DNA of 64,000 bases from a virus (IMGVR_UViG_3300032330_001398); one strand, 5' to 3'. Shown: positions 42,328-64,000, counted from the stretch's first letter. Notes: a model not told the origin generated them from the sequence alone. Program-made: numbers and translations.

Positions 42328-42424
42328 CTTATCCTCCTTGATATTAATCTTGATAGTTAAGAAAAGACCCCCGAAAGTGTGCATTGTTAAGAGGCATCGG
42401 GGGATTTATCTTTTCCTTTAAATA

Positions 42425-53669: not shown

Positions 53670-54101
53670 TTATGCTCTAATTGGCATATTTACCTTAATA
53701 AGTTTATGAGGACTACGATACATGTTATCTATGAGTGAAGATTGTATTTCTTCTCCCATATAGATATACCCATAACCACCATTTGAACTATGTACGACCA
53801 AGCCATTATGGTCATGTTTAAATACTGTATATACTCCAGCATCACTCATATACATACGTTCGCCAAGATCGTTAATATAATAGTTACCAGATCGCCCAAT
53901 GACCTTGATGGTATCACCAACAACAAGAGTCTTCCAATCTGCGATCTCTTCAAACTTCTTGGGGCGCTTAGTTTTAAACTTATTCTTCTTAGTTATAGAA
54001 GCAGGAACAAATTCAAAATTGCACTTTTTACAATTGTGTGATCGTGCGCCATTAATCTCCTGACAATTCTTACAAAGTTTTTGACCACGTTTCAGTTTCA
54101 T
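53670..54101 (-). CDS. Zinc-ribbon + SH3-like hypothetical protein
   Basis: CKNC..CKKC N-terminus. Confidence 0.6.
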   Translation of the reverse strand: MKLKRGQKLCKNCQEINGARSHNCKKCNFEFVPASITKKNKFKTKRPKKFEEIADWKTLVVGDTIKVIGRSGNYYINDLGERMYMSDAGVYTVFKHDHNGLVVHSSNGGYGYIYMGEEIQSSLIDNMYRSPHKLIKVNMPIRA

Positions 54102-54132
54102 ATATAGTTCCTATAGTGTAAAAATACAAATC

Positions 54133-54253
54133 TCACTGACTACCAGTAGCGGCCAGATCTGTTTAATTTGGGAAGTACGTAGTGTACTATACCACAATCT
54201 TAACAACTTGTCAAGAGAGAAGTTCACTGACTACCAGTACAGGCCAGAACTGT
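54133..54253. repeat. Two 30-bp direct repeats (54133-54162, 54224-54253) flanking a promoter
   Basis: TCACTGACTACCAGTA(GC/CA)GGCCAGA(T/A)CTGT; TTGACA-N17-TATAGT lies between them (54186-54214, minus). Confidence 0.85.
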
Positions 54254-54273
54254 ATAAATAAGGTAAGACAGTA

Positions 54274-54884
54274 TTACCACATCTTATGTTTCTTATTTTT
54301 AGATTCAACTGGCGGCTCGTTGCCCATAAGAATTTCTAATGATCCTACTTCATTAAGTTTAGCAAAGTAACTATTAGAAATACGTTGCTTGGTTAGACCC
54401 TCTTCTTCATGCTTAGTATATACGTTAATACGATATTTATTATCATAAACATTGGTCGCCTTACACATCATATAATGTTCGGGCTTAGATACTATTTTAA
54501 AAAGTTGGTAGCATATATCATTAGACTCATCATAAATCGGGGTTGGTGTTAAATCTTTAGTTTTGGCCATCATTATTCCTTTGCTGCTGATACTATGTTG
54601 ACTGTTCCAATAAACGGCTTTAGTTTATAATCTTTGAGGTTGGTTGTTGTTCCCACTCTCATTAAATTATCTGAATGTATAACTACTCCCTCATGGAGCT
54701 TATCCGTTAACATCCATACAATCTCTTTCTTATCTTCACTCTCCCATTTTACTAAACTACCCATAACATTATTTTTCACATTCTCGCTGACTGTATCTCC
54801 ATAACTTGAACTGTTTGTATTGGGAGATACAAGGGCGTTCTGTATTGAAATTCCCAGATTATCTAGATTGCCTATCTTTTCCAT
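54274..54884 (-). other. Two hypothetical genes (54274-54573, 54573-54884)
   Basis: Coupled ORFs with GGAGG RBS. Confidence 0.55.
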
Positions 54885-54927
54885 CTTATCGTTCCTCCTA
54901 TGCTTCCATCATACACTATCGACACAC

Positions 54928-55067
54928 TTGACGCAAGTACTTGAGACTAAAGGACTTACGTTCAATCACATATAGACTTGACGTAAACCCTTATCGAATA
55001 AGGATTTATATTCAATTTCGCCCGCCCCGCTTGCCGTAAACCCTTATGGGATACGGACTTACAGCGA
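54928..55067. repeat. Paired-palindrome element, copy 1 (three palindromes)
   Basis: Cores at 54933, 54983, 55036 matching GTAARYCCTT-N7-AAGGRYTTAC; linker contains GCCCGCCCCGCT. Confidence 0.88.
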
Positions 55068-55097
55068 GAACCAGCTTCCCAAGATTTTGAGAGAGTA

Positions 55098-55140
55098 GGG
55101 AACCGGCAGGATAATCTATTGATAATGTCCTACCGGCCCC
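55098..55140 (-). terminator. Long GC hairpin downstream of the DUF932-like gene
   Basis: Minus strand GGGGCCGGTAGGA...TCCTGCCGGTTCC. Confidence 0.55.
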
Positions 55141-55161
55141 TTTCCCCTCCCACTATTATAC

Positions 55162-56361
55162 TCAGGCAGTCAGAGCGAAAACCTTATCATAATCTTTCTG
55201 AGTAAAGGTATCCGCACGACGCAGAACGCTATTCCATTGTGAGGAATCCATCTGTGCCAGACCGCCAGCGATCTCATCGAATCGCACCCACTCCTTATTA
55301 CTAAACTTCTGGCCTGCACGGGTCAGACCGTTGATGATACCGAACAGCGTACCCTGCTCAGATTCGTAGGTGATAAACTGCTCAAGGAATTCCGTTGCTT
55401 CCTTCTTACTAAGTTTATAATCCGACGAAACACTAGCGATAACACTCTTAGCGGAAGTCTTACCAAGTTCCAGCGAACGGGTTTCCAGAAACTTCTTGAT
55501 ACTAGGAGCAAGCAGCGGAATCTGATGCTGGATATTCATAGCAATTTCCAACTTCAGAGCGGCGAGGTCGATATTGCCACGATGAACGCGACGAATCTTC
55601 TCACCGGCAGTTTGACCCCAGATACAACCGTTCATGCAGATAGCACGAAACAGGCTGGGCGTTTGCGTGATGCGACGAGTGCCGATCTCACAGTTGCCAA
55701 CGCTGATCATGCCACCGTAGTCGCTATCATCCGCACCGTAGTCCATAATGGTATCGGGGATAAGAACATTACCATAGATGGTATCCTCATCGCCACGCCA
55801 GTGGCTGAAACGTCCACCGGGAATAAACTCCCCCAGAACGTCCAGATACCAGCGATTATCAACCGGAGCATACTGCTCAGTCACAAACGCACGACAAGTA
55901 CCATCCGTATAGGTACGGAGTCGGAACTTCTTATCTTGATCAATTCGACGCATAGCGTTGTTACCAACGATAGCCATCGTGTTGCTATCGTTACCATCGA
56001 ACCCTTCGATGTTACGCATCTCACGCAGGAACGATGAACTAGTCACGCCAACGCGAGTGCTGAACTGTTCAAGAGCATGGTCAGTCGGGCGAAACTTGCG
56101 ACCATCTGCCAGCTTGAAATAAAAATCATTACCCTCATTGGTGCAGAAAATATTCTTGATTTCAGTGAGAATATCCTCACGATTATCAATAGCAGTCTGC
56201 GTGTCCTGCTTGACCTGTTCGAAGGTCTTGGTCTTTGCCCACCAATCTTTGTGGACATGACTACCTTCCGCGAAACCCGTACCGGTGTTGCCTTGCAGGG
56301 TACGCACAAACGAACCAGCATCAGAACCAGATTCAATCGTCAACTTATTATAATCGCTCAT
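55162..56361 (-). CDS. DUF932-like protein
   Basis: CRAFVTEQY..VDN, GNCEIG, LFRAICMNGCIW, H.G, LFGIINGLTRAGQ. Confidence 0.72.
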   Translation of the reverse strand: MSDYNKLTIESGSDAGSFVRTLQGNTGTGFAEGSHVHKDWWAKTKTFEQVKQDTQTAIDNREDILTEIKNIFCTNEGNDFYFKLADGRKFRPTDHALEQFSTRVGVTSSSFLREMRNIEGFDGNDSNTMAIVGNNAMRRIDQDKKFRLRTYTDGTCRAFVTEQYAPVDNRWYLDVLGEFIPGGRFSHWRGDEDTIYGNVLIPDTIMDYGADDSDYGGMISVGNCEIGTRRITQTPSLFRAICMNGCIWGQTAGEKIRRVHRGNIDLAALKLEIAMNIQHQIPLLAPSIKKFLETRSLELGKTSAKSVIASVSSDYKLSKKEATEFLEQFITYESEQGTLFGIINGLTRAGQKFSNKEWVRFDEIAGGLAQMDSSQWNSVLRRADTFTQKDYDKVFALTA

Positions 56362-56403
56362 CTCAAAAACTCCTAGTGGGGAAAACCAAACGCTACTTCA
56401 AAT

Positions 56404-56432
56404 ATTATACTACAGGCTATCGATGTTGTCAA
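56404..56432 (-). promoter_or_regulatory. Sigma70-like promoter
   Basis: TTGACA-N17 (contains CGATA)-TATAAT. Confidence 0.75.
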
Positions 56433-56652
56433 CTGGAAACAATCGATCAAAACAACTTCCGCACATTGAACTGATCAAAAGTTCACGCTCACTATCCGAA
56501 AGGTAGGGCATAAGGTCTTGAATAAAACCCGCCTTATTCTTCCATTCGATATAGTCGGTGATCTTGACAAAAATCACATGCTTTGCACCGCACTCGCGGC
56601 ACTTTGCTTCCAAAACCGTGTCGAACGCTTGAATGTTCATTGCTACCATCAT
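56410..56652 (-). CDS. Small Zn-binding hypothetical protein
   Basis: CREC...IQDLMPYLS..ERELLIS.MC..CFD. Confidence 0.6.
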   Translation of the reverse strand: MMVAMNIQAFDTVLEAKCRECGAKHVIFVKITDYIEWKNKAGFIQDLMPYLSDSERELLISSMCGSCFDRLFPVDNIDSL

Positions 56653-56668
56653 TCTCTCCTGTCCACTG

Positions 56669-56696
56669 ATCATACCATACTTATCGTCAGTGTCAA
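56669..56696 (-). promoter_or_regulatory. Sigma70-like promoter
   Basis: TTGACA-N16 (contains CGATA)-TATGAT. Confidence 0.72.
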
Positions 56697-56721
56697 GGGG
56701 GTAGCATTAGAAATAATTTTT

Positions 56722-56811
56722 TTGACGTAAGTTGTTGGTAGATAAGGACTTACGATCAGCGGGGCGGGCCGCGCTTGCCCTAAACCCTTATGGGATAAGG
56801 ACTTGCGGCAA
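56722..56811. repeat. Paired-palindrome element, copy 2
   Basis: Cores at 56727 and 56780; linker AGCGGGGCGGGC. Confidence 0.9.
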
Positions 56812-57141
56812 GTTCAGAGGATGCTAGATTCTCCAGTTTTTTAATTCCGTTTTGAGTTTCTTCTCAATGCCCGTAATGATCTTTTGAACAGGTACACTTA
56901 CTGCATAATCTTTTTTATATGCTGTGATAGCATCTAGGATCTTCCACATTTCATTTGCTGATAGTTCAATGTTACAATTATTCATGGGTTGCCCGTGGTA
57001 TGGTTGGGAGGAAATTGATTACTTTATTAATTACAAAGTTACTTTCTCGCTTTATTCACCTTTATATAGCAATGACCACACAAATATCATAATCATAAGC
57101 TCTATCAATTGATCTCCCTAGAGTGATGAAAACTATCACAG

Positions 57142-57217
57142 TAGGGCGTGTACGAGTCGAACGTACCTATGGACACCTTATAAGAGTGTTGGATGCTACC
57201 GGCTTACCTTACGCCCC
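57142..57217 (-). tRNA. tRNA-Ile(UAU), G1:U72, no encoded CCA
   Basis: GGGGCGT...ACACT-CTTATAA-GGTGT...GTACG-TTCGACT-CGTAC-ACGCCCT-A; own promoter TTGACA-N17-TATAAT at 57238-57266. Confidence 0.82.
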
Positions 57218-57273
57218 GTGAACGAGTGACCCGCACCATTATAGCACGGGCCACTCGCCCTGTCAAGGGAGTA

Positions 57274-57489
57274 TCAACGATAGCAGGACGCTTCGACCAT
57301 CTTAGCAAACAACAGGGTTCGCACAGTATTATCCATAGCACGAACCACAGCATACTTACCATTCGGGCCAGTACCAACACGCTCAACGCGACCGGTATGG
57401 AACTTCAGAATGTTCCTATTACCGTGCAGAGGATACTTGCAACGAACATGGCGATCCTTCTTCAAGCTAGCAAAATTATTCATAATCAT
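57274..57489 (-). CDS. Small SH3/WYL-like hypothetical protein
   Basis: Beta-rich 71 aa, AAGGGAG RBS. Confidence 0.45.
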   Translation of the reverse strand: MIMNNFASLKKDRHVRCKYPLHGNRNILKFHTGRVERVGTGPNGKYAVVRAMDNTVRTLLFAKMVEASCYR

Positions 57490-57661
57490 CTCCCTTAGTT
57501 AGACACCCATCATCTTCTCAACCTGTGCGAAGGTCAACACAACCTTCACGTTATTATCAACAATCACCACACCATCACGCTTGATAGCAGTAACAATACC
57601 TTTGGGCGTTACTGTACCAATTCCAAGAACCTTTGTCATTTCATTCTCCCTGTTGACTAAA

Positions 57662-58033
57662 TCACCACCAGCTATCATACACTACCTTGTTACCATTGTC
57701 AAGCGCATTTCGTGCAGCTTGGATAAACTCAACATCCTGCTGCCTATAAGTATCATCACTATCATCACCAAAGAAGAAACCAACAGTCTGCGGCAAACTA
57801 TTAGATTCAAGAGCCTGTTCTAGACTATCCAAATCTTCCCTAGTAAGTTCAACCGGAACACAGTTGAAATCACTCAGCCCAGCAATATCCTTATCATCGT
57901 GGGCAAAAGGGCGACCCTTGCTTTCCCACAAGTTTTCCATCCACCCTTGAAGATTAGGATGCTTTCTCCAATAACAAATCTCAGTCTTGTTATTATCCTT
58001 ATCGACGGAATAGGCATACTGATCCAAACCCAT
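57662..58033 (-). CDS. Hypothetical phage protein
   Basis: MGLDQY...YWRKHPNLQGWM...GFFFG...YDSWW. Confidence 0.7.
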   Translation of the reverse strand: MGLDQYAYSVDKDNNKTEICYWRKHPNLQGWMENLWESKGRPFAHDDKDIAGLSDFNCVPVELTREDLDSLEQALESNSLPQTVGFFFGDDSDDTYRQQDVEFIQAARNALDNGNKVVYDSWW

Positions 58034-58122
58034 TACATTCTCTCCTTTGGTTTTGCTAGTGTCGAACTAGACTACTACTACTTCATCTAGTATCGACATT
58101 CTAGCAGACAAACTTTAGAAAA

Positions 58123-58389
58123 TCAAGAGGCAGCAACTTCGACCGCAGCTTCGGCCTTGACAGCCTTAGCTTTCTTGGGCGGCTTGGGGTTCAGCGATTC
58201 CTCAGTAACACCAGCGACCCTAGCGCGCCACACCTTGAAACCCTGCTCCTTGAGAGCAAGCGTCTTGACGGGCTTGATAGCCGCGTAGACACCATCATTC
58301 TCAACGTTGGCAATCAACGTCTGAGCAATCGAATCCGTATCAAGCTCACCATCGGTCACAACATCCAGCACAAACGTATACTTATTCAT
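58123..58389 (-). CDS. Hypothetical protein with Lys/Ala-rich tail
   Basis: GAGGA RBS; promoter TTGACT-N16-TAGAAT at 58438-58465. Confidence 0.65.
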   Translation of the reverse strand: MNKYTFVLDVVTDGELDTDSIAQTLIANVENDGVYAAIKPVKTLALKEQGFKVWRARVAGVTEESLNPKPPKKAKAVKAEAAVEVAAS

Positions 58390-58491
58390 AATTAGTCCTC
58401 TTTTCTCTTAGTGTTTATCGTTCCCGTAACTTCAATCATTCTACCATAGTATCGTCCAGAGTCAATAGGGAACTTGAAAAAAAATTTGAGA

Positions 58492-58581
58492 TTGATGTAA
58501 GTCGTTGTGGCGTAAGGACTTACGACGAGCGGGGCGGGCCGGGCTAATCCTAAACCCAAGCGGCATAAGGACTTAGGACTA
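58492..58581. repeat. Paired-palindrome element, copy 3
   Basis: Cores at 58497 and 58550; linker AGCGGGGCGGGC. Confidence 0.9.
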
Positions 58582-58594
58582 GCTCGACCTACGA

Positions 58595-59644
58595 TTAACC
58601 TACACAGAATTCATCGCTCATCTTGGCAGCAAGTTCTTTGGCAGCAGCAGACAAGAACTTATTGTTACTGAAGTACAATGGTGTAGCCACTTGGTTAAGA
58701 AAGTGTACTACGGATGACAACAGCTTAAGCTGATCTTCGTTAGGTGTACACTTAGCATCCATGATAGAGTTAGACTCTGGCTCGTCGGAAACATAGTCTG
58801 GAATATCCTCATTCTCGCCAATGATGGTGGGATTGGTAGTATCCTCGTTAATCAACTCGTTAAGAATTTTCGTCGCACATTCTGCACTAATAGGTACAGC
58901 ATTAGACGTATGCTTGCTAGATCGAATCTTTTCATACCAAGCATCGCTACTGCTAGCAGACTTAACATGAACTTGTGCAGACTGACCAGTAAGAGCATTT
59001 TGAAGATCAACCATGCTTGTACGATTACCAGATGATTCAACGCATAAGGTACAGAAATAACTCTTCTTACCTTCCCACGGCTTACGCCACCAAGTAAAAG
59101 GCACACGAAAGATTTGATTAATTTTCATAGCACGAATGTCCGCACTGAAATAGTTAGCGAGTTTCTTCTGAATACCATTCCAGTATGTCTTATTCTTAGA
59201 CAAGCCAAGGTCGTGATCTTTCTTAGTAAGAATCCAATAAGCTTGATATCCATTGCGAGTATCAACAATCCACGTTGGCTTAACTCCAAATCCTAACAAC
59301 TTACTCATGAACTCTTTCTTCTTTTCCATAACAACTTTGGGGGCGAAGTAATGTCCATTGATATCGCGTCCAGCGTCAAGATCTATATAACAAGCACGAA
59401 CAGCGTGTGTCTCATCTTTCTTACGCGACCCGTTAACGTAGAAGTATGAGTCACAGTTTTGCTTTATATTGTTGGTAAGCACTTCCGTAATATCATTCAC
59501 ATGATTCATACCACTAAGCTTAGTCTTAGGATTGTTGTTGTAGCAATAGATATTGGTGCTACCAAACGAATTCATAAAAGCTTGGCGACGTTGTGCGTAA
59601 TCATTAGCAAACACATTGTGCTTCTCATCAAACGGATTGAACAT
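58595..59644 (-). CDS. RepB-like (AEP superfamily) primase-domain protein
   Basis: YFYVN, CYIDLD, PTWIVDTRNGYQAYW, D..QIFRVP; promoter TTGACA-N16-TATAAT at 59690-59717. Confidence 0.75.
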   Translation of the reverse strand: MFNPFDEKHNVFANDYAQRRQAFMNSFGSTNIYCYNNNPKTKLSGMNHVNDITEVLTNNIKQNCDSYFYVNGSRKKDETHAVRACYIDLDAGRDINGHYFAPKVVMEKKKEFMSKLLGFGVKPTWIVDTRNGYQAYWILTKKDHDLGLSKNKTYWNGIQKKLANYFSADIRAMKINQIFRVPFTWWRKPWEGKKSYFCTLCVESSGNRTSMVDLQNALTGQSAQVHVKSASSSDAWYEKIRSSKHTSNAVPISAECATKILNELINEDTTNPTIIGENEDIPDYVSDEPESNSIMDAKCTPNEDQLKLLSSVVHFLNQVATPLYFSNNKFLSAAAKELAAKMSDEFCVG

Positions 59645-59719
59645 TCTCTTTTCCTCTTCCTCTTTGTTTATTGACCACATCATTACTCCATTATAACACA
59701 GTTATCGGCATTGTCAAGA

Positions 59720-60112
59720 CTACTTCTTGAGAAAATCTTTTCGTGGACTCACGAATACTCTTCGTCCAACAGTGACCAGAGTATAATAAGTAAGATTATC
59801 GTAATTATTTGGGCCATCTGAACATCTCCAGTAGGGTGCAATTTTTGGATCATACATGAGTTCTTTCCATCCTTCTACGTTATAAGAATCGTAGGGAACG
59901 GAAGTATAGTCAGTGCAACGAATATACCCACACACATCACGCTTCTGACTAGCGAACACGCGCTGTGCTTTACGCTTTTCATTCTTAAGGATGCAATTAT
60001 ACATAACAAGACCATCTTTGGCTGGATCATGATAGACAGGAACCTGTCCAAACTTTATCTGCCAAAACTTATAATACTTACCAGCCCCAAGATGAAACCT
60101 AACGTCAAACAT
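59720..60112 (-). CDS. Hypothetical protein
   Basis: VRFHLGAG..Y..WQIK motif. Confidence 0.55.
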   Translation of the reverse strand: MFDVRFHLGAGKYYKFWQIKFGQVPVYHDPAKDGLVMYNCILKNEKRKAQRVFASQKRDVCGYIRCTDYTSVPYDSYNVEGWKELMYDPKIAPYWRCSDGPNNYDNLTYYTLVTVGRRVFVSPRKDFLKK

Positions 60113-60479
60113 TTTTAACAACCTCCACAACACAGCCCTGAGAACGAAGTTCAGATGCCATCTTCACCGCAACGTCACTTTCTGTATTGATGGAGTTCCA
60201 CCTACCACCAACATAGTCGTTGTCTGGGGTACTCCATCGACCACGTACAACATCCAACCAATTCTTGGCATCCTTCAATCCCCAACCAAGATGGGAACGG
60301 ATGATCTTGATACAAGAAACGAAGTTGTCGCATGGGACGCTATGAAGAACCATAGTGACCTTAAGTTCCCCACACTTTACTTCCAAAGCCCCAATGATGC
60401 GGTTATACATATCAACGTTGCCCTCGCTCTGAGTAGCAAGCCAAATCGCTTCACGAACCGTCATCTCAACCGTAATCAT
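60105..60479 (-). CDS. Ribosomal protein bL12 C-terminal-domain-like protein
   Basis: CIKIIRSHLGWGLKDAKNWLD...MASELRSQGCVVEV resembles IKVVR..TGLGLKEAK..L...GA.VEV. Confidence 0.65.
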   Translation of the reverse strand: MITVEMTVREAIWLATQSEGNVDMYNRIIGALEVKCGELKVTMVLHSVPCDNFVSCIKIIRSHLGWGLKDAKNWLDVVRGRWSTPDNDYVGGRWNSINTESDVAVKMASELRSQGCVVEVVKNV

Positions 60480-60508
60480 ATATTCTCCTTTTTCCCTATT
60501 ATACAGGC

Positions 60509-61383
60509 TTAGTTTAGTTTGTCAAGGGCTGGATAATCTTTTGGATAATGTTCTTTTGGTGGTGGTGGTTTTGGTTGTCCCTCATCTGGCATCCACCACG
60601 GAGCGTCGAAATAATCTACATTGCCGGGAGCTTCACCACAGTCAATATTGTGAATACAAAAAGGATCATTATAGTTTATTCTATATGTTCCACGCCACAC
60701 ACCAATAGGCTCACCATAATAGATGATCTTTTGACCATTAATAGGGCGACGAGGCCCAAAGAAACTAATCCATTCCATTATTTAAGTCCTTACTATGAAA
60801 TACAACTATGACACCAACAAAAGTTTTCGTGACCCCTGATATGCTCTTTCTTCATTCGTTCAATAATTTCTGGATCAGTAACATTTTTGTCTTTGATTAG
60901 ATCATCAATAGTATAAAGAGTACCATCCTCTTTATATCTACAATCATCATTTCCCAAATCATACGCATCTCGATAATACTGAACAAACATTACTTTCTCT
61001 CCTTTAGATAGATCATTTCCAACCCTCCGGCATAGGAATCTCTTGAAAGCTAGTATAGCATACCACTAGATCACTGTCAAATGGTATCCATTCTCCATCA
61101 CCATCTTTATTCCAATCGCCCCAATCGCCATCGTACCAAGTCAAGGGGATAGGAAAAGAATAATCCTTAACACAACATAGATATTGACCATTCAAAATAG
61201 GATTATCGTAATGCCAGTTCATTATATCCTCATTACAATATTTTCGTAGGCTTTAATCAGATCGATACCACTAATGTTATGCTCTGCTGCTAGGTTCATA
61301 GCTATAGTCTTAGCTGGACTCATAACCATCATGGGGTTTTTTAGAACCCTAAGAATATATACCACTGCTTCTTCTTTAGTCAT
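60509..61383 (-). other. Small hypothetical genes (60509-60778, 60793-60990, 61013-61222, ~61222-61383)
   Basis: Coupled ORFs; two begin with DUF551-like MxW.. motifs. Confidence 0.5.
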
Positions 61384-61403
61384 CTCTTCTCCTTTGTATT
61401 GTT

Positions 61404-61487
61404 ATCACACGGCTATATGGCGTTGCAACGTCGAGGCCGATCTGGCCACATATAGTTAAGGAAGGTTCTCCTTCTCATCCGTGTGAT
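61404..61487 (-). ncRNA. Unclassified ~84-nt multibranch structured RNA
   Basis: Closing ATCACACGG/CCGTGTGAT 9-bp stem, inner CTATATG/CATATAG stem, three small hairpins. Confidence 0.6.
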
Positions 61488-61498
61488 TTTATTAAACG

Positions 61499-61730
61499 TG
61501 GTGAGGACGCGATCCCCCATAGATTGGTATTGTTAGTTAACGTTAACCCCGTTAACACCACCTATCTTCGCTCAGAGGCATTCTAAGATAGATGGCTTTC
61601 AATAGGTTATCCCAACCTAGTCCAAGGCATGGACCCGCGTAGTTTGTATTGTAAAGCAGATTGGGTTGAGCCATAATCGACAGCCATTTAACCGTAGCTT
61701 CTTTGATATCATTCTGCTAGCGGCCCTCAT
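61499..61730 (-). ncRNA. Unclassified ~230-nt structured RNA
   Basis: Terminal stem plus at least five internal helices, no ORF of 60 aa or more, consensus promoter directly upstream. Confidence 0.68.
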
Positions 61731-61744
61731 CTGCTTCTTCAACT

Positions 61745-61772
61745 ATTATACCAGACGATTCTTTCCTGTCAA
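61745..61772 (-). promoter_or_regulatory. Consensus sigma70 promoter pointing into the structured RNAs
   Basis: TTGACA-GGAAAGAATCGTCTGG-TATAAT. Confidence 0.8.
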
Positions 61773-62075
61773 GTGGCGATTTTTGTATTCTTTGATGTCA
61801 CCGTTCATCACAATCTTTTCTTCTTCGTAAGGTACGGCCACACGACGATAGAATTCTTGTTTTACATTCTCAACAACGCCCGTGATCATCGCAATCTTTG
61901 CATAAGACGTACTTCCCATTACTTGCCCAATCAGCCTAGTCATACAGTAATTCAGATCGCCCAACACTGTGACCAAATCTTGATTATCAAAATCACTATG
62001 ATTAGTAATTATGTTAGCAAGATCGTCTATGGATCGGTCTAATATCTTGCGGCTTGTTTCATCAATGTACGGCAT
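61746..62075 (-). CDS. Hypothetical phage protein
   Basis: MPYI...GDLNY...ENVKQEFYRR...PYE..KI..NGD. Confidence 0.7.
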   Translation of the reverse strand: MPYIDETSRKILDRSIDDLANIITNHSDFDNQDLVTVLGDLNYCMTRLIGQVMGSTSYAKIAMITGVVENVKQEFYRRVAVPYEEEKIVMNGDIKEYKNRHLTGKNRLV

Positions 62076-62224
62076 TATATATCTCTCTCTTCTACAACTG
62101 TTGAACTTTCACAATCCATACACATAGCATTATCATATGGGCCACCAACTAGATTACCATCTTGGTCAACCCAAGCATCGTATCCTATGTTGCTGCTGCC
62201 ACACTCACTACATATTGTACTCAT
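62075..62224 (-). CDS. 49-aa zinc-ribbon protein
   Basis: Read by hand: MSTICSECGSSNI...CMDCES; its stop overlaps the next ATG. Confidence 0.55.
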   Translation of the reverse strand: MSTICSECGSSNIGYDAWVDQDGNLVGGPYDNAMCMDCESSTVVEERDI

Positions 62225-62447
62225 CTCGCCACCCCTTTTCAATGTCTTTGCGTGTTCGCTGACGCTTGGGGCGGTTGTCCATAACCGTATCCCGATGCTC
62301 CTTGTGTCCCGTAGGAACTTCCCACGGTTTCTTGACCTTGAGCTTGACCACGTTGCGGCGTGGCCTCATATCTTCGTTGTTGTGGTGCATAATCATGCCA
62401 TATTCCATTCTCATGTAGGTAAAAGACTTTATCGACATTCGGATCAT
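62208..62447 (-). CDS. Small basic protein overlapping ORF 62239-62634
   Basis: Internal promoter TTGACA-N16-TACAAT at 62463-62490; true start may be ~62397. Confidence 0.45.
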   Translation of the reverse strand: MIRMSIKSFTYMRMEYGMIMHHNNEDMRPRRNVVKLKVKKPWEVPTGHKEHRDTVMDNRPKRQRTRKDIEKGWRDEYNM

Positions 62448-62634
62448 AAGCCATTAAACAATATTGTACTGGATAAATTGGCTTTGTCAAGGCCGCTTTT
62501 TGTGGTATAGGAGGAAACTTTATATCCCCCTTCTGATAGTCCTTGAATCCCGTATACGCTAACCCCAATAGGGTAATGAAAACTCCAACCCACTGAATCA
62601 CGATTCCACTCCTTTGACCTTGTTTCTTGTCCAT
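62239..62634 (-). CDS. Hypothetical membrane protein
   Basis: N-terminal TM; Gln/Gly-rich tail in the overlap region. Confidence 0.5.
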   Translation of the reverse strand: MDKKQGQRSGIVIQWVGVFITLLGLAYTGFKDYQKGDIKFPPIPQKAALTKPIYPVQYCLMAYDPNVDKVFYLHENGIWHDYAPQQRRYEATPQRGQAQGQETVGSSYGTQGASGYGYGQPPQASANTQRH

Positions 62635-62684
62635 ATATAGGTTATCGACACTCTACCCCAATGAACTTTAGGCTTTCTGAAAAA

Positions 62685-62774
62685 TTGTTGTAAGTCTTTA
62701 TCTGGTAAGGGTTTACGTCAAAAAACCCCGGCCCCGCTTGCCATAAGTCCAATGGCAGCAAGGGTTTACGTCAA
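62685..62774. repeat. Paired-palindrome element, copy 4
   Basis: Cores at 62690 and 62743; linker CCCCGGCCCCGCT. Confidence 0.88.
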
Positions 62775-62830
62775 GGTATCCTATTTCTAGATAATTGCGT
62801 GATAGGCAATAATCCTAAAATAGAGTACCT

Positions 62831-63061
62831 TCATTCTATCTCCCAATTTGCTAGTTTTACAATTACTTCCGTAGGAATAACCTGAGTATTTTTATCCGCA
62901 GTTTTATAATCTCTATATCCACGCTCATCTACATAGAAATATTCATCTAGTACATCATGTTCATTAGTTTCCCACAATACTTGTGCTGCTGCTTCACTCT
63001 CTGATTTGTTGGTGCTATAGATAAGTTGTAGACTTCCACACTGAATATAATACTTAGACAT
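62831..63061 (-). CDS. Hypothetical protein
   Basis: MSKYYI.CG...YVDERGYR. Confidence 0.55.
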   Translation of the reverse strand: MSKYYIQCGSLQLIYSTNKSESEAAAQVLWETNEHDVLDEYFYVDERGYRDYKTADKNTQVIPTEVIVKLANWEIE

Positions 63062-63593
63062 TTGATTTCCTTTGTTGTTGACAGATTATACAGCCGCAAT
63101 CGTCATAATCATCATCGTCAACGTATAGGTCAGTAGCATCTTCGTCGCATACACTCTCTGTACCAAAGTCTATACATACCATGACCCGCCTTCCCTTACG
63201 TCGCACGAATCCGACGTTACCGATATGGCAATCCATAAACTCTACACCGGCCTTCTTCATCATTCTATAGGCTAGATTACTAATCTGATTCTCATATGAA
63301 AACTCTAGAGTATCATCACAGTCACCGCAACTACAACTATTACCACCGCAACCAATAGTTTCTGCAATCTCTGTAATATATCCCCAACATGACAGATCGC
63401 CATTGTTCATACGGATTTTACCAACTTGGCTTAATACATATGGGGCCATGTTATATGTTTCCAGTTTAGATTGAACACTGTGGGCATAGTCTGCTTCATA
63501 TTGTCCGCTGAACTCTTTGAAGCCCCGTTTGTTATCTATAAAATAGAAAGCACTACTAGACCCCGCATTTTCATACTGACCAACAATCGTCAT
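63054..63593 (-). CDS. Minimal protein-kinase-like fold protein
   Basis: GSSSAFY, GFK, YITE, DCHIGNVG (catalytic loop), CIDFG. Confidence 0.68.
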   Translation of the reverse strand: MTIVGQYENAGSSSAFYFIDNKRGFKEFSGQYEADYAHSVQSKLETYNMAPYVLSQVGKIRMNNGDLSCWGYITEIAETIGCGGNSCSCGDCDDTLEFSYENQISNLAYRMMKKAGVEFMDCHIGNVGFVRRKGRRVMVCIDFGTESVCDEDATDLYVDDDDYDDCGCIICQQQRKSNV

Positions 63594-63604
63594 GATATAT
63601 CCTC

Positions 63605-64000
63605 TTAGTGGGCTGGAAACAAAACATTAGCTAAACCGCGAACGCACAGATCACATGATATACTATCTTTGGTGCCAGTGCAAGTGATTTCTGAGCGACC
63701 ACGACGGATTTCTGGGCATACCACGAACTTTGTGGCATTTAGAATTACCATCTTAGGAAGTTCTTTTCTCCACGCTTCGGCCTTGACTTTGCTCTTGGGA
63801 CGCTTGGGAGCAATCTTCATATCACTATCGCACCATGCGAACAGCTTGAAACCTTGGGCTAATGCTTCGCCCATATCATTATCGTCATGCACACTAGCAT
63901 ATACATTCATATACTTTTCCAGACTTACCAGCCTAGCATCATAAATATGAGTATAAAACCACATATCGGGCAAAGTATCACCATCGGCAAGAATACTCTC
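63605..64000 (-). CDS. Gp88-like Cys-rich protein, start beyond the window
   Basis: WFYTH, VYASVH, CPE..ITC..CDLC. Confidence 0.55.
   Translation of the reverse strand, partial: ESILADGDTLPDMWFYTHIYDARLVSLEKYMNVYASVHDDNDMGEALAQGFKLFAWCDSDMKIAPKRPKSKVKAEAWRKELPKMVILNATKFVVCPEIRRGRSEITCTGTKDSISCDLCVRGLANVLFPAH

Follow-up and report, generated by a model that had tools for sequence, protein, structure and literature searches.

Phased upstream activator sites are represented among described systems by the Fis sites that accompany the UP element at rrnB P1 and by class I CRP sites, and NtrC- and NifA-type activators use paired inverted-repeat enhancer sites near -75 and -130. The repetitive extragenic palindromes (REP) and bacterial interspersed mosaic elements (BIME) of enterobacteria are intergenic pairs of imperfect palindromes that occur in hundreds of copies, together with a Y1 (RAYT) transposase gene flanked by repeats. 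In T4-type phages, promoter-early stem-loop (PeSL) cassettes have been reported (Arbiol et al. 2010, PMC2839356; Comeau et al. 2014, PMC4122927), and these are single stem-loops with terminator character. Here we analyse a repeat that recalls each of these systems, a ~90-bp element present in four copies, with one additional palindrome, between positions 54,928 and 62,774 of the viral DNA IMGVR_UViG_3300032330_001398; the whole 64,000-nucleotide stretch that was analysed is referred to as the window.

Our favoured reading, which we give about an even chance of being right, is that the element docks a protein upstream of early promoters, in helical phase with them, and doubles as a recombination joint. 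It would constitute a vertically inherited, cis-acting DNA module of an uncultured aquatic phage lineage with genomes of 150-170 kb, working most likely as double-stranded DNA. The evidence that carries this reading is the strict geometry of the element, its conservation across the lineage, its polarity and helical phasing relative to adjacent promoters, and the lack of stem covariation in its arms.

Anatomy and conservation of the element

A scan of the window with GTAARYCCTT-N7-AAGGRYTTAC at no more than three mismatches recovered eight of the nine palindromes that a first-pass annotation had described, at 54933, 54983, 55036, 56727, 56780, 58497, 62690 and 62743 (chance 0.02; none of 100 shuffles reaches eight). 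The ninth, at 58550, reads CTAAACCCAA-gcggcat-AAGGACTTAG and is degenerate, being recovered only with a looser cut-off. The pairs 54983/55036, 56727/56780, 58497/58550 and 62690/62743 are each separated by exactly 53 bp, with 50 bp between the extra site (54933) and 54983. The GC box AGCGGGGCSGG occurs four times in the window (0.14 expected), at 56758 and 58528 on the plus strand and at 55021 and 62728 on the minus strand, in every case 4 bp from the adjacent palindrome. The palindromes, their exact pairing and the four boxes are thus all present as first described, far above chance. Each palindrome is imperfect and spans 27 bp, or ~37 bp with its outward TNGNC flanks, and a 16-bp GC core fills the remainder of the element. 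The half-sites are variants of GTAAGTCCTT, of the GTAAGTGCTT type in the relative G002, around a fixed 7-bp spacer. As had been noted, the spacers differ among copies, and we additionally find that they are non-random, since each of the four copies has G-rich spacers on the plus strand. R1, a whole-element covariance model built from 36 copies, matched the window only within 54.9-62.8 kb, where it returned the four known copies. All copies sit between minus-strand genes, most of whose calls are backed by homologues, in a region (52-64 kb) in which every gene is on the minus strand. The elements of the window are as follows.

54928-54964 (core 54933-54959), unstranded: extra palindrome P0, GCAAGTACTT-gagacta-AAGGACTTAC plus TTGAC flank, 50 bp to the next site
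54978-55067, unstranded: copy 1, palindromes 54983-55009 and 55036-55062, GC box 55021-55031 (minus strand); R1 70.9 bits, minus strand
56722-56811, unstranded: copy 2, proximal palindrome 56727-56753, GC box 56758-56773, distal palindrome 56780-56806; R1 98.8 bits
58492-58581, unstranded: copy 3, proximal palindrome 58497-58523, GC box 58528-58543, distal palindrome 58550-58576, degenerate; R1 76.7 bits
62685-62774, unstranded: copy 4, palindromes 62690-62716 and 62743-62769 (the second weak), GC box 62728-62738 (minus strand); R1 62.1 bits

These copies belong to a large, low-GC (33%) phage whose window carries rIIA, NrdA, a UvsX-like recombinase, a DnaB-like helicase, a ligase, tRNAs and a transfer-messenger RNA (tmRNA). 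Its rIIA is at most 36% identical to that of any cultured phage, and 50,697 GenBank phage records gave no megablast or blastn match. Relatives were found in IMG/VR, where a partial pattern consisting of one arm and the GC box matched 44 contig stretches which, once aligned, have the identical three-part design. The promoter-proximal palindrome of copy 2 (56727-56753) reads GTAAGTTGTT-ggtagat-AAGGACTTAC, and in its orthologues (L083, L080, L075 and many IMG/VR contigs) arms and GC box are nearly identical. The orthologous gap of copy 4 retains at least one palindrome in relatives (L079 2614, L083 10722, L075 14041), and the three-site layout of P0 with copy 1 (50 + 53 bp) is likewise kept (L080 5867/5917/5970, L083 3042/3092/3145, L076 1146/1199/1249). 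Five complete relatives of 149-173 kb contain 16-31 R1 matches each over both strands, equivalent to ~8-16 elements per genome, and in each genome all of the matches fall within a single small-gene region of 12-23 kb:

G001: 142-159 kb
G002: 6-18 kb
G003: 0.8-12 and 156-160 kb
G004: 107-130 kb
G005: 17-33 kb

Three of the five are collinear with the window (50-80% amino-acid identity), with elements at corresponding intergenic positions. Among 182 non-identical pairs of neighbouring palindromes the distance is 53 bp in 130, 52 bp in 20 and 50 bp in 11, the remainder being scattered, so the 53-bp distance first seen in the window is conserved over the whole lineage. Spacer length is equally strict, as 7 bp yields 116 palindromes and any other length from 3 to 11 bp yields 6-14. 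Judged by this comparison, the geometry of the element is held by selection. Between nearest non-identical relatives, the arms show an identity of 0.90, the linker 0.80, the spacers 0.66 and the flanks, which are essentially unrelated, 0.42; conservation peaks at the positions where a protein would be expected to read the DNA.

The GC box follows a different rule from the palindromes around it. Its constant offset, as first described, stands, but its proposed role as an oriented mark does not, as orthologous copies carry the box inverted in situ while the flanking palindromes keep their orientation. Copy 3 of the window has AGCGGGGCGGGCCG where its orthologue L083:7259 has ACGCGGCCCGCCCC, and in G002 the box is a true palindrome, GCGGGGC-nnn-GCCCCGC. 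A flip of this kind is possible because the box is placed between inverted arms. With orthologous boxes inverted and one clade palindromic, an oriented site for a third factor becomes doubtful, and the strand of the box is no reliable marker of element polarity.

Polarity and helical phasing relative to early promoters

The early region is dense in near-consensus sigma70-type promoters on the minus strand, and copies 2 and 3 each adjoin one of them.

56669-56721, minus strand: copy 2 promoter with A/T-rich UP-like tract, TTGACA (56696-56691), 16-bp spacer, TATGAT (56674-56669)
58438-58491, minus strand: copy 3 promoter with A-tract, TTGACT (58465-58460), 16-bp spacer, TAGAAT (58443-58438)

For copy 2 the computed start near 56662 places the palindrome centres at about -78 and -131, and for copy 3 the centres lie at about -79 and -132; both copies belong to the 30-bp gap class. 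Across the lineage, 68 of 129 non-identical elements have a sigma70-type promoter that is directed away from exactly one edge and lies 18-40 bp off. When elements are oriented by this promoter, the distal palindrome reads CTAAGTCCTT-N7-AAGGRTTTAG and the proximal palindrome GTAAGTCCTTA-N5-CAACRACTTAC, followed by an A/T-rich UP-like tract and then the -35 hexamer. Within this set of predicted promoters, the polarity of the element is fixed relative to its neighbour. The gap to the -35 hexamer of strong promoters, counted in 43 non-redundant clusters, peaks at 20-21, 29-31, 39-41 and 50-52 bp, with 33 of the 43 clusters within four 3-bp bins compared with ~12 if gaps were evenly spread, which describes a periodicity of about 10 bp between element and predicted promoter. 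Because of this helical phasing and fixed polarity, an operator or enhancer is the option favoured by the evidence among those raised when the element was first noticed.

These features are consistent with a model in which both palindromes, on one face of the helix, would be occupied by a sequence-specific dimeric protein of phage or host origin, or by two related proteins of this kind, the 53-bp centre-to-centre distance amounting to ~5 helical turns. The resulting complex, centred at about -78 and -131 just beyond the A/T-rich UP-like tract, would be in helical register with early sigma70-type promoters and could modulate them in one of two ways, by activation or recruitment of RNA polymerase or by shielding the promoter against transcription that comes in from farther upstream. 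A by-product would be that the repeats, being conserved, provide homology patches for the exchange of early-gene cassettes, as has been proposed for T4-type PeSL cassettes. With a conserved 27-bp site that could serve as bait for the regulator and a defined set of promoters predicted to be under its control, the element offers a precise and testable handle on gene regulation in this lineage.

Several observations weigh against this model. The first-pass annotation placed the elements just upstream of leftward promoters, which is confirmed at copies 2 and 3; at copies 1 and 4 only weak candidates were read by eye, none convincing in register, and copy 4 has no strong promoter on either side. 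Most of the strongest promoters of the window (six match the consensus at 12/12) have no upstream element and sit inside the 3' ends of upstream genes; the element is therefore no general requirement for early transcription. Near-consensus promoters with a UP-like tract should, moreover, need no activator. Among ~30 early proteins compared with Pfam and PHROGs none has a recognisable DNA-binding domain, and the neighbouring genes supply no candidate binder. Promoters were called against the Escherichia coli sigma70 consensus, which may not be that of the host. Finally, many of the counted copies are orthologues and not fully independent, a dependence that clustering into 43 promoter groups lowers without removing.

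The distances of the palindromes from the promoter also raise the possibility of an enhancer, or upstream activating site, for a sigma54-type activator, in which an enhancer-binding protein assembled on the two palindromes would drive sigma54-type phage promoters. Paired inverted repeats near -75 and -130 are classic enhancer geometry, and near-consensus TGGCAYG-N4-TTGC motifs stand beside a subset of elements in relatives at offsets of 13-14 and 35-37 bp, with a predicted start ~63 nt from the element edge compared with ~65 nt for sigma70 promoters. In the window, however, elements are attached to sigma70-type promoters and the motif is not above chance (3 matches at one mismatch versus 5.8 expected), the five complete relatives encode neither an enhancer-binding protein (PF00158) nor sigma54 (PF04552), and the sigma54-like motifs come as inverted pairs that may be palindromic elements themselves. 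We regard this explanation as improbable overall, and such a role is conceivable for copies in relatives only.

Further observations concern the promoters and motifs of these regions. In relatives, past the end of the window, sigma54-type motifs form inverted pairs both back-to-back and face-to-face (L083:16500-16930, also L075, L079 and L081); one such motif lies ~30 nt before a gene start, and elsewhere a sigma54-like promoter is separated from an element by three direct copies of GTAGCATTTTGCAAC (L083:16620-16710). The CGATA motif falls within the -35/-10 spacer of several early promoters (59717, 56696, 56432, 58465). At copies 1 and 4 and their orthologues, GTGTCGATA-N3-TAYNAT occurs without a good -35 hexamer and may represent a second promoter type. 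The left end of P0 overlaps a weak leftward promoter candidate, TTGCGT (54936-54931), 17-bp spacer, TATGAT (54913-54908), which precedes the gene starting at 54884 and was read by eye, below the promoter-scan threshold.

Between copy 1 and the stop of a 399-aa DUF932-like gene, immediately past that stop, an inverted repeat at 55100-55142 (CCGGCAGGA...TCCTACCGG) overlaps a weak plus-strand promoter-like site, and this site is conserved among orthologues. Direct repeats of 34 bp (54133-54166 and 54224-54257; 88% identical, 91 bp apart) bracket the promoter at 54214-54186. ARAGORN places a tRNA-Ile (anticodon TAT) at 57141-57217 on the minus strand, directly downstream of a 12/12 sigma70-type promoter (57266-57238) and not in the Rfam output at gathering score. 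A phage tmRNA (42695-43047, minus strand, 98 bits) is followed by a borderline abiF RNA motif (42367-42403, minus strand, 38.3 bits against a gathering score of 37). Over 54000-64000, GC content climbs from ~33% to ~42% in the small-gene early region that bears the elements.

Probable recognition as DNA and candidate binding proteins

Each palindrome could in principle form a hairpin, and the elements are located at the 3' ends of transcription units, so that folding in early transcripts as a terminator, an RNase III-type processing site or an mRNA stabiliser has to be considered. The central GC palindrome also resembles the G(n)-loop-C(n) stem of PeSLs, and fold z-scores reach -3.1. The arms themselves, however, do not behave as stems. 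In the 36-copy alignment a three-hairpin structure pairs 75.5% of cells compared with 76.5% after shuffling, with covariation below almost all shuffles. Among 157 units picked by invariant positions only, Watson-Crick matching between arms is below random (total z -4.3), most clearly at arm positions 5, 6 and 8 (z -6.0, -3.5 and -3.7). Palindromes with two A-type (GTAAACCCTT) or two G*-type (GTAAGTYGTT) half-sites are almost absent among these units and mixed ones are common, a pattern opposite to that of a stem which suggests that half-sites are read individually.

Other properties of the element agree with this result. RNA folding of either strand gives z-scores of only -1.0 to -3.1, RNAalifold returns -0.93 kcal/mol with a different fold in which the hairpins are not recovered, and Rfam, at gathering score and at E<=5, has nothing at the elements. 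On the sense strand the promoter-proximal palindrome contains C.C and C.A mismatches, and the element is followed by an A-run instead of a U-run. Terminator-like sites number 8 in 12 kb compared with 6.5 expected, and none is at an element. We also considered the idea that the foldable strand is the transcribed strand; it looked promising in G005, where the greedy ORF calls proved unreliable, and failed over all genomes, as the strand capable of G.U rather than A.C pairing ignores gene strand. Because the arms lack covariation, the foldable strand ignores gene strand, and there is neither a U-tract nor an Rfam match, we read the element as most likely acting as DNA recognised by protein and not as RNA, and we give the RNA explanation little chance. 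The first-pass preference for protein binding over homology-dependent recombination is supported, and a protein bound to one DNA face also accounts for the element better than base pairing does.

The shape of the palindromes invites comparison with core sites for a tyrosine (Xer-like) or other site-specific recombinase acting in inversion, deletion or resolution, which was among the initial suggestions. With inverted arms of 10-15 bp and exactly 7 bp between them, the palindromes have the form of such a core site, whose central region is 6-8 bp, and the inversion of the GC box between orthologous copies could be seen as a trace of recombination. The spacers, however, differ within an element as well as between copies (identity 0.66), so strand exchange between copies would fail; gene order is largely collinear across elements, and the five complete relatives contain no tyrosine recombinase (PF00589). 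A recombinase site is accordingly a very improbable explanation. The same relatives also lack HU/IHF (PF00216).

A second suggestion had linked copy 3 to replication through the adjacent RepB-like primase gene; on such a reading the element would be a replication origin or a single-strand priming signal recognised by the primase-like neighbour. Plasmid priming signals (single-strand initiation, ssi) have a hairpin-plus-GC arrangement which the layout here recalls, and copy 3 does abut a 362-aa gene with weak primase-family similarity (phrog_10514, E 0.0012; phrog_3123, E 5.6e-9). This gene is nevertheless accessory, being absent from four of the five complete relatives, which bear 8-16 elements each, and G003, which has it, carries it ~6 kb beyond the element cluster; the replication reading thereby loses its basis. 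Eight to 16 promoter-tied copies are unlike an origin, and no strand-specific hairpin is maintained, which leaves this reading, too, with hardly any probability. Neither the Xer, the replication-signal nor the RNA option is supported.

The 362-aa primase-like protein has no relative in the PDB, and for a basic 71-aa protein and a Zn-ribbon 143-aa protein the ESM Atlas returned only unnamed viral clusters.

Possible gene exchange, bacterial relatives and known systems

Nucleotide homology blocks between the window, G005, G003 and G001, all compared mutually, repeatedly stop within 10 bp of an element, an association that is suggestive only, as it is uncontrolled against other intergenic sites. 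One such break lies at the distal edge of copy 3, where a block specific to the window begins:

58585-60543, minus strand: window-specific gene block, 362-aa primase-like gene and neighbours; homology break

These breaks argue for a PeSL-like recombination cassette or selfish repeat that, with or without its promoter, is kept mainly by copying and exchange, its homology patches shuffling early genes with no dedicated binder. In its favour, identity falls from 0.9 to 0.42 right at the element edges, and PeSLs are described from indel junctions of hyperplastic regions, as a stem-loop joined to sigma70-type promoter motifs (PMC4122927, PMC2839356). The multi-copy composite relatives at contig ends in a Planctomycetaceae metagenome-assembled genome (MAG) and the recurrence of the palindrome within a ~100-350 bp repeat of a Phycisphaerales genome, both described below, point in the same direction. 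Within-genome copies, however, are old, with a mutual identity of just 60-76%, in contrast to the good conservation among orthologues, and the element has no linked transposase. Homology alone would leave unexplained the exact 7-bp and 53-bp lengths, which persist despite drift of the spacer sequence, as well as the non-random combination of half-sites and the 10-bp promoter phasing. We consider maintenance by exchange alone unlikely; the homology breaks also count in favour of the docking module, in its additional role as a recombination joint.

Sequences of the same family occur in a few bacterial lineages. A scan of one genome per prokaryotic species returned many chance-level matches with a visible excess in Planctomycetota and Acidobacteriaceae, and two Planctomycetota genomes have 17 and 26 sites compared with none for a reversed-pattern control. 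In the Planctomycetaceae MAG, G009, multi-copy composite repeats at contig ends contain two palindromes 78 bp apart around GC-rich DNA and are recognised over their full length by R1 at 24-35 bits, and in the Phycisphaerales genome, G007, palindromes lie ~84 bp apart inside the longer repeat. Copy numbers are 5-26 per host genome. The lead to Planctomycetota holds in that related repeats exist in a few genomes, but it does not extend to the phylum, as a random sample of 150 Planctomycetota genomes showed no enrichment (6 single matches versus 3 for the reversed-pattern control). Presence of the family outside phages in a few lineages hints at host range, and it may also reflect a shared binding protein or exchange of the repeat; the repeats in a few Planctomycetota genomes are in this sense a lead to the host.

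A broader form of this idea is that a DNA-binding protein family not yet described uses the element as its docking platform, a portable enhancer-like module equally distant (about -75/-130) from sigma70- and sigma54-type promoters that is shared, and perhaps exchanged, with Planctomycetota chromosomes. We judge it distinctly unlikely; if it were true, the phage may plug its early genes into a regulatory circuit of the host.

Two related ideas were examined and set aside. A host regulon was rejected, the genes adjacent to palindromes in Planctomycetota loci being mutually unrelated (transposases, transketolase, Mur ligase, methyltransferase and others). A link to RAYT/REP was rejected as well: the phages and G007 lack PF01797, and G009 has 18 such genes, of which none of the eight retrieved is flanked by a palindrome.

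Two further arrangements were seen in bacterial genomes. In G007 (L222-L228) the multi-copy repeat contains two palindromes and tandem AACGAACCCA motifs, and several copies border N-masked stretches. In at least 10 Acidobacteriaceae genomes (for example the MAG loci L098:560-960 and L165:2860-3260), a ~240-bp segment beside selB is flanked by tandem palindromes that belong to this family and are spaced 29-30 bp apart.

In the literature, the arm sequences turn up only as incidental primers. With REP/BIME repeats the element shares intergenic pairs of imperfect palindromes with a short linker in many copies, and related repeats in some bacterial chromosomes; it differs in having no Y1 (RAYT) transposase link, a low copy number and strict phasing to promoters. 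Like NtrC/NifA enhancers, it presents two inverted-repeat sites ~75-130 bp upstream, and some copies in relatives stand at a fixed distance from sigma54-like motifs. Unlike those enhancers, it adjoins sigma70-type promoters, which they do not serve, in a window without a sigma54 motif and in phages without the activator or sigma54 gene.

The resemblance to Fis and CRP sites lies in the geometry, with dimer-type inverted repeats upstream of an A/T-rich UP-like tract, several on one DNA face, and distances to the promoter that differ by whole helical turns (33 of 43 clusters in phase). The half-site is nevertheless unrelated to the Fis or CRP consensus, the sites are far longer at 27-37 bp, and activation here is only putative.

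PeSL cassettes share with the element an intergenic position directly upstream of near-consensus sigma70-type early promoters (two of four copies in the window, 68 of 129 non-identical copies), a plastic region of small open reading frames, a location at junctions where related genomes differ, and a G-rich/C-rich stem-loop part to which the central GC palindrome corresponds. The differences are substantial: a 90-bp array of three palindromes stands in place of one short stem-loop, and the element, having no terminator-like U-tract and no covariation in its arms, is not a single stem-loop terminator. Here, in addition, strong conservation of the arm sequence goes with fixed spacer lengths (7 and 53 bp), half-site variants are paired in a non-random manner, and the promoter stands at a helically phased distance from the element.

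The element belongs with promoter-associated repeat cassettes or phased operator arrays, as a variant of them. Five-turn spacing, a non-random mix of half-sites, 10-bp promoter phasing and homology breaks are an unusual combination for a phage repeat, and one that ties promoter control to modular gene exchange.

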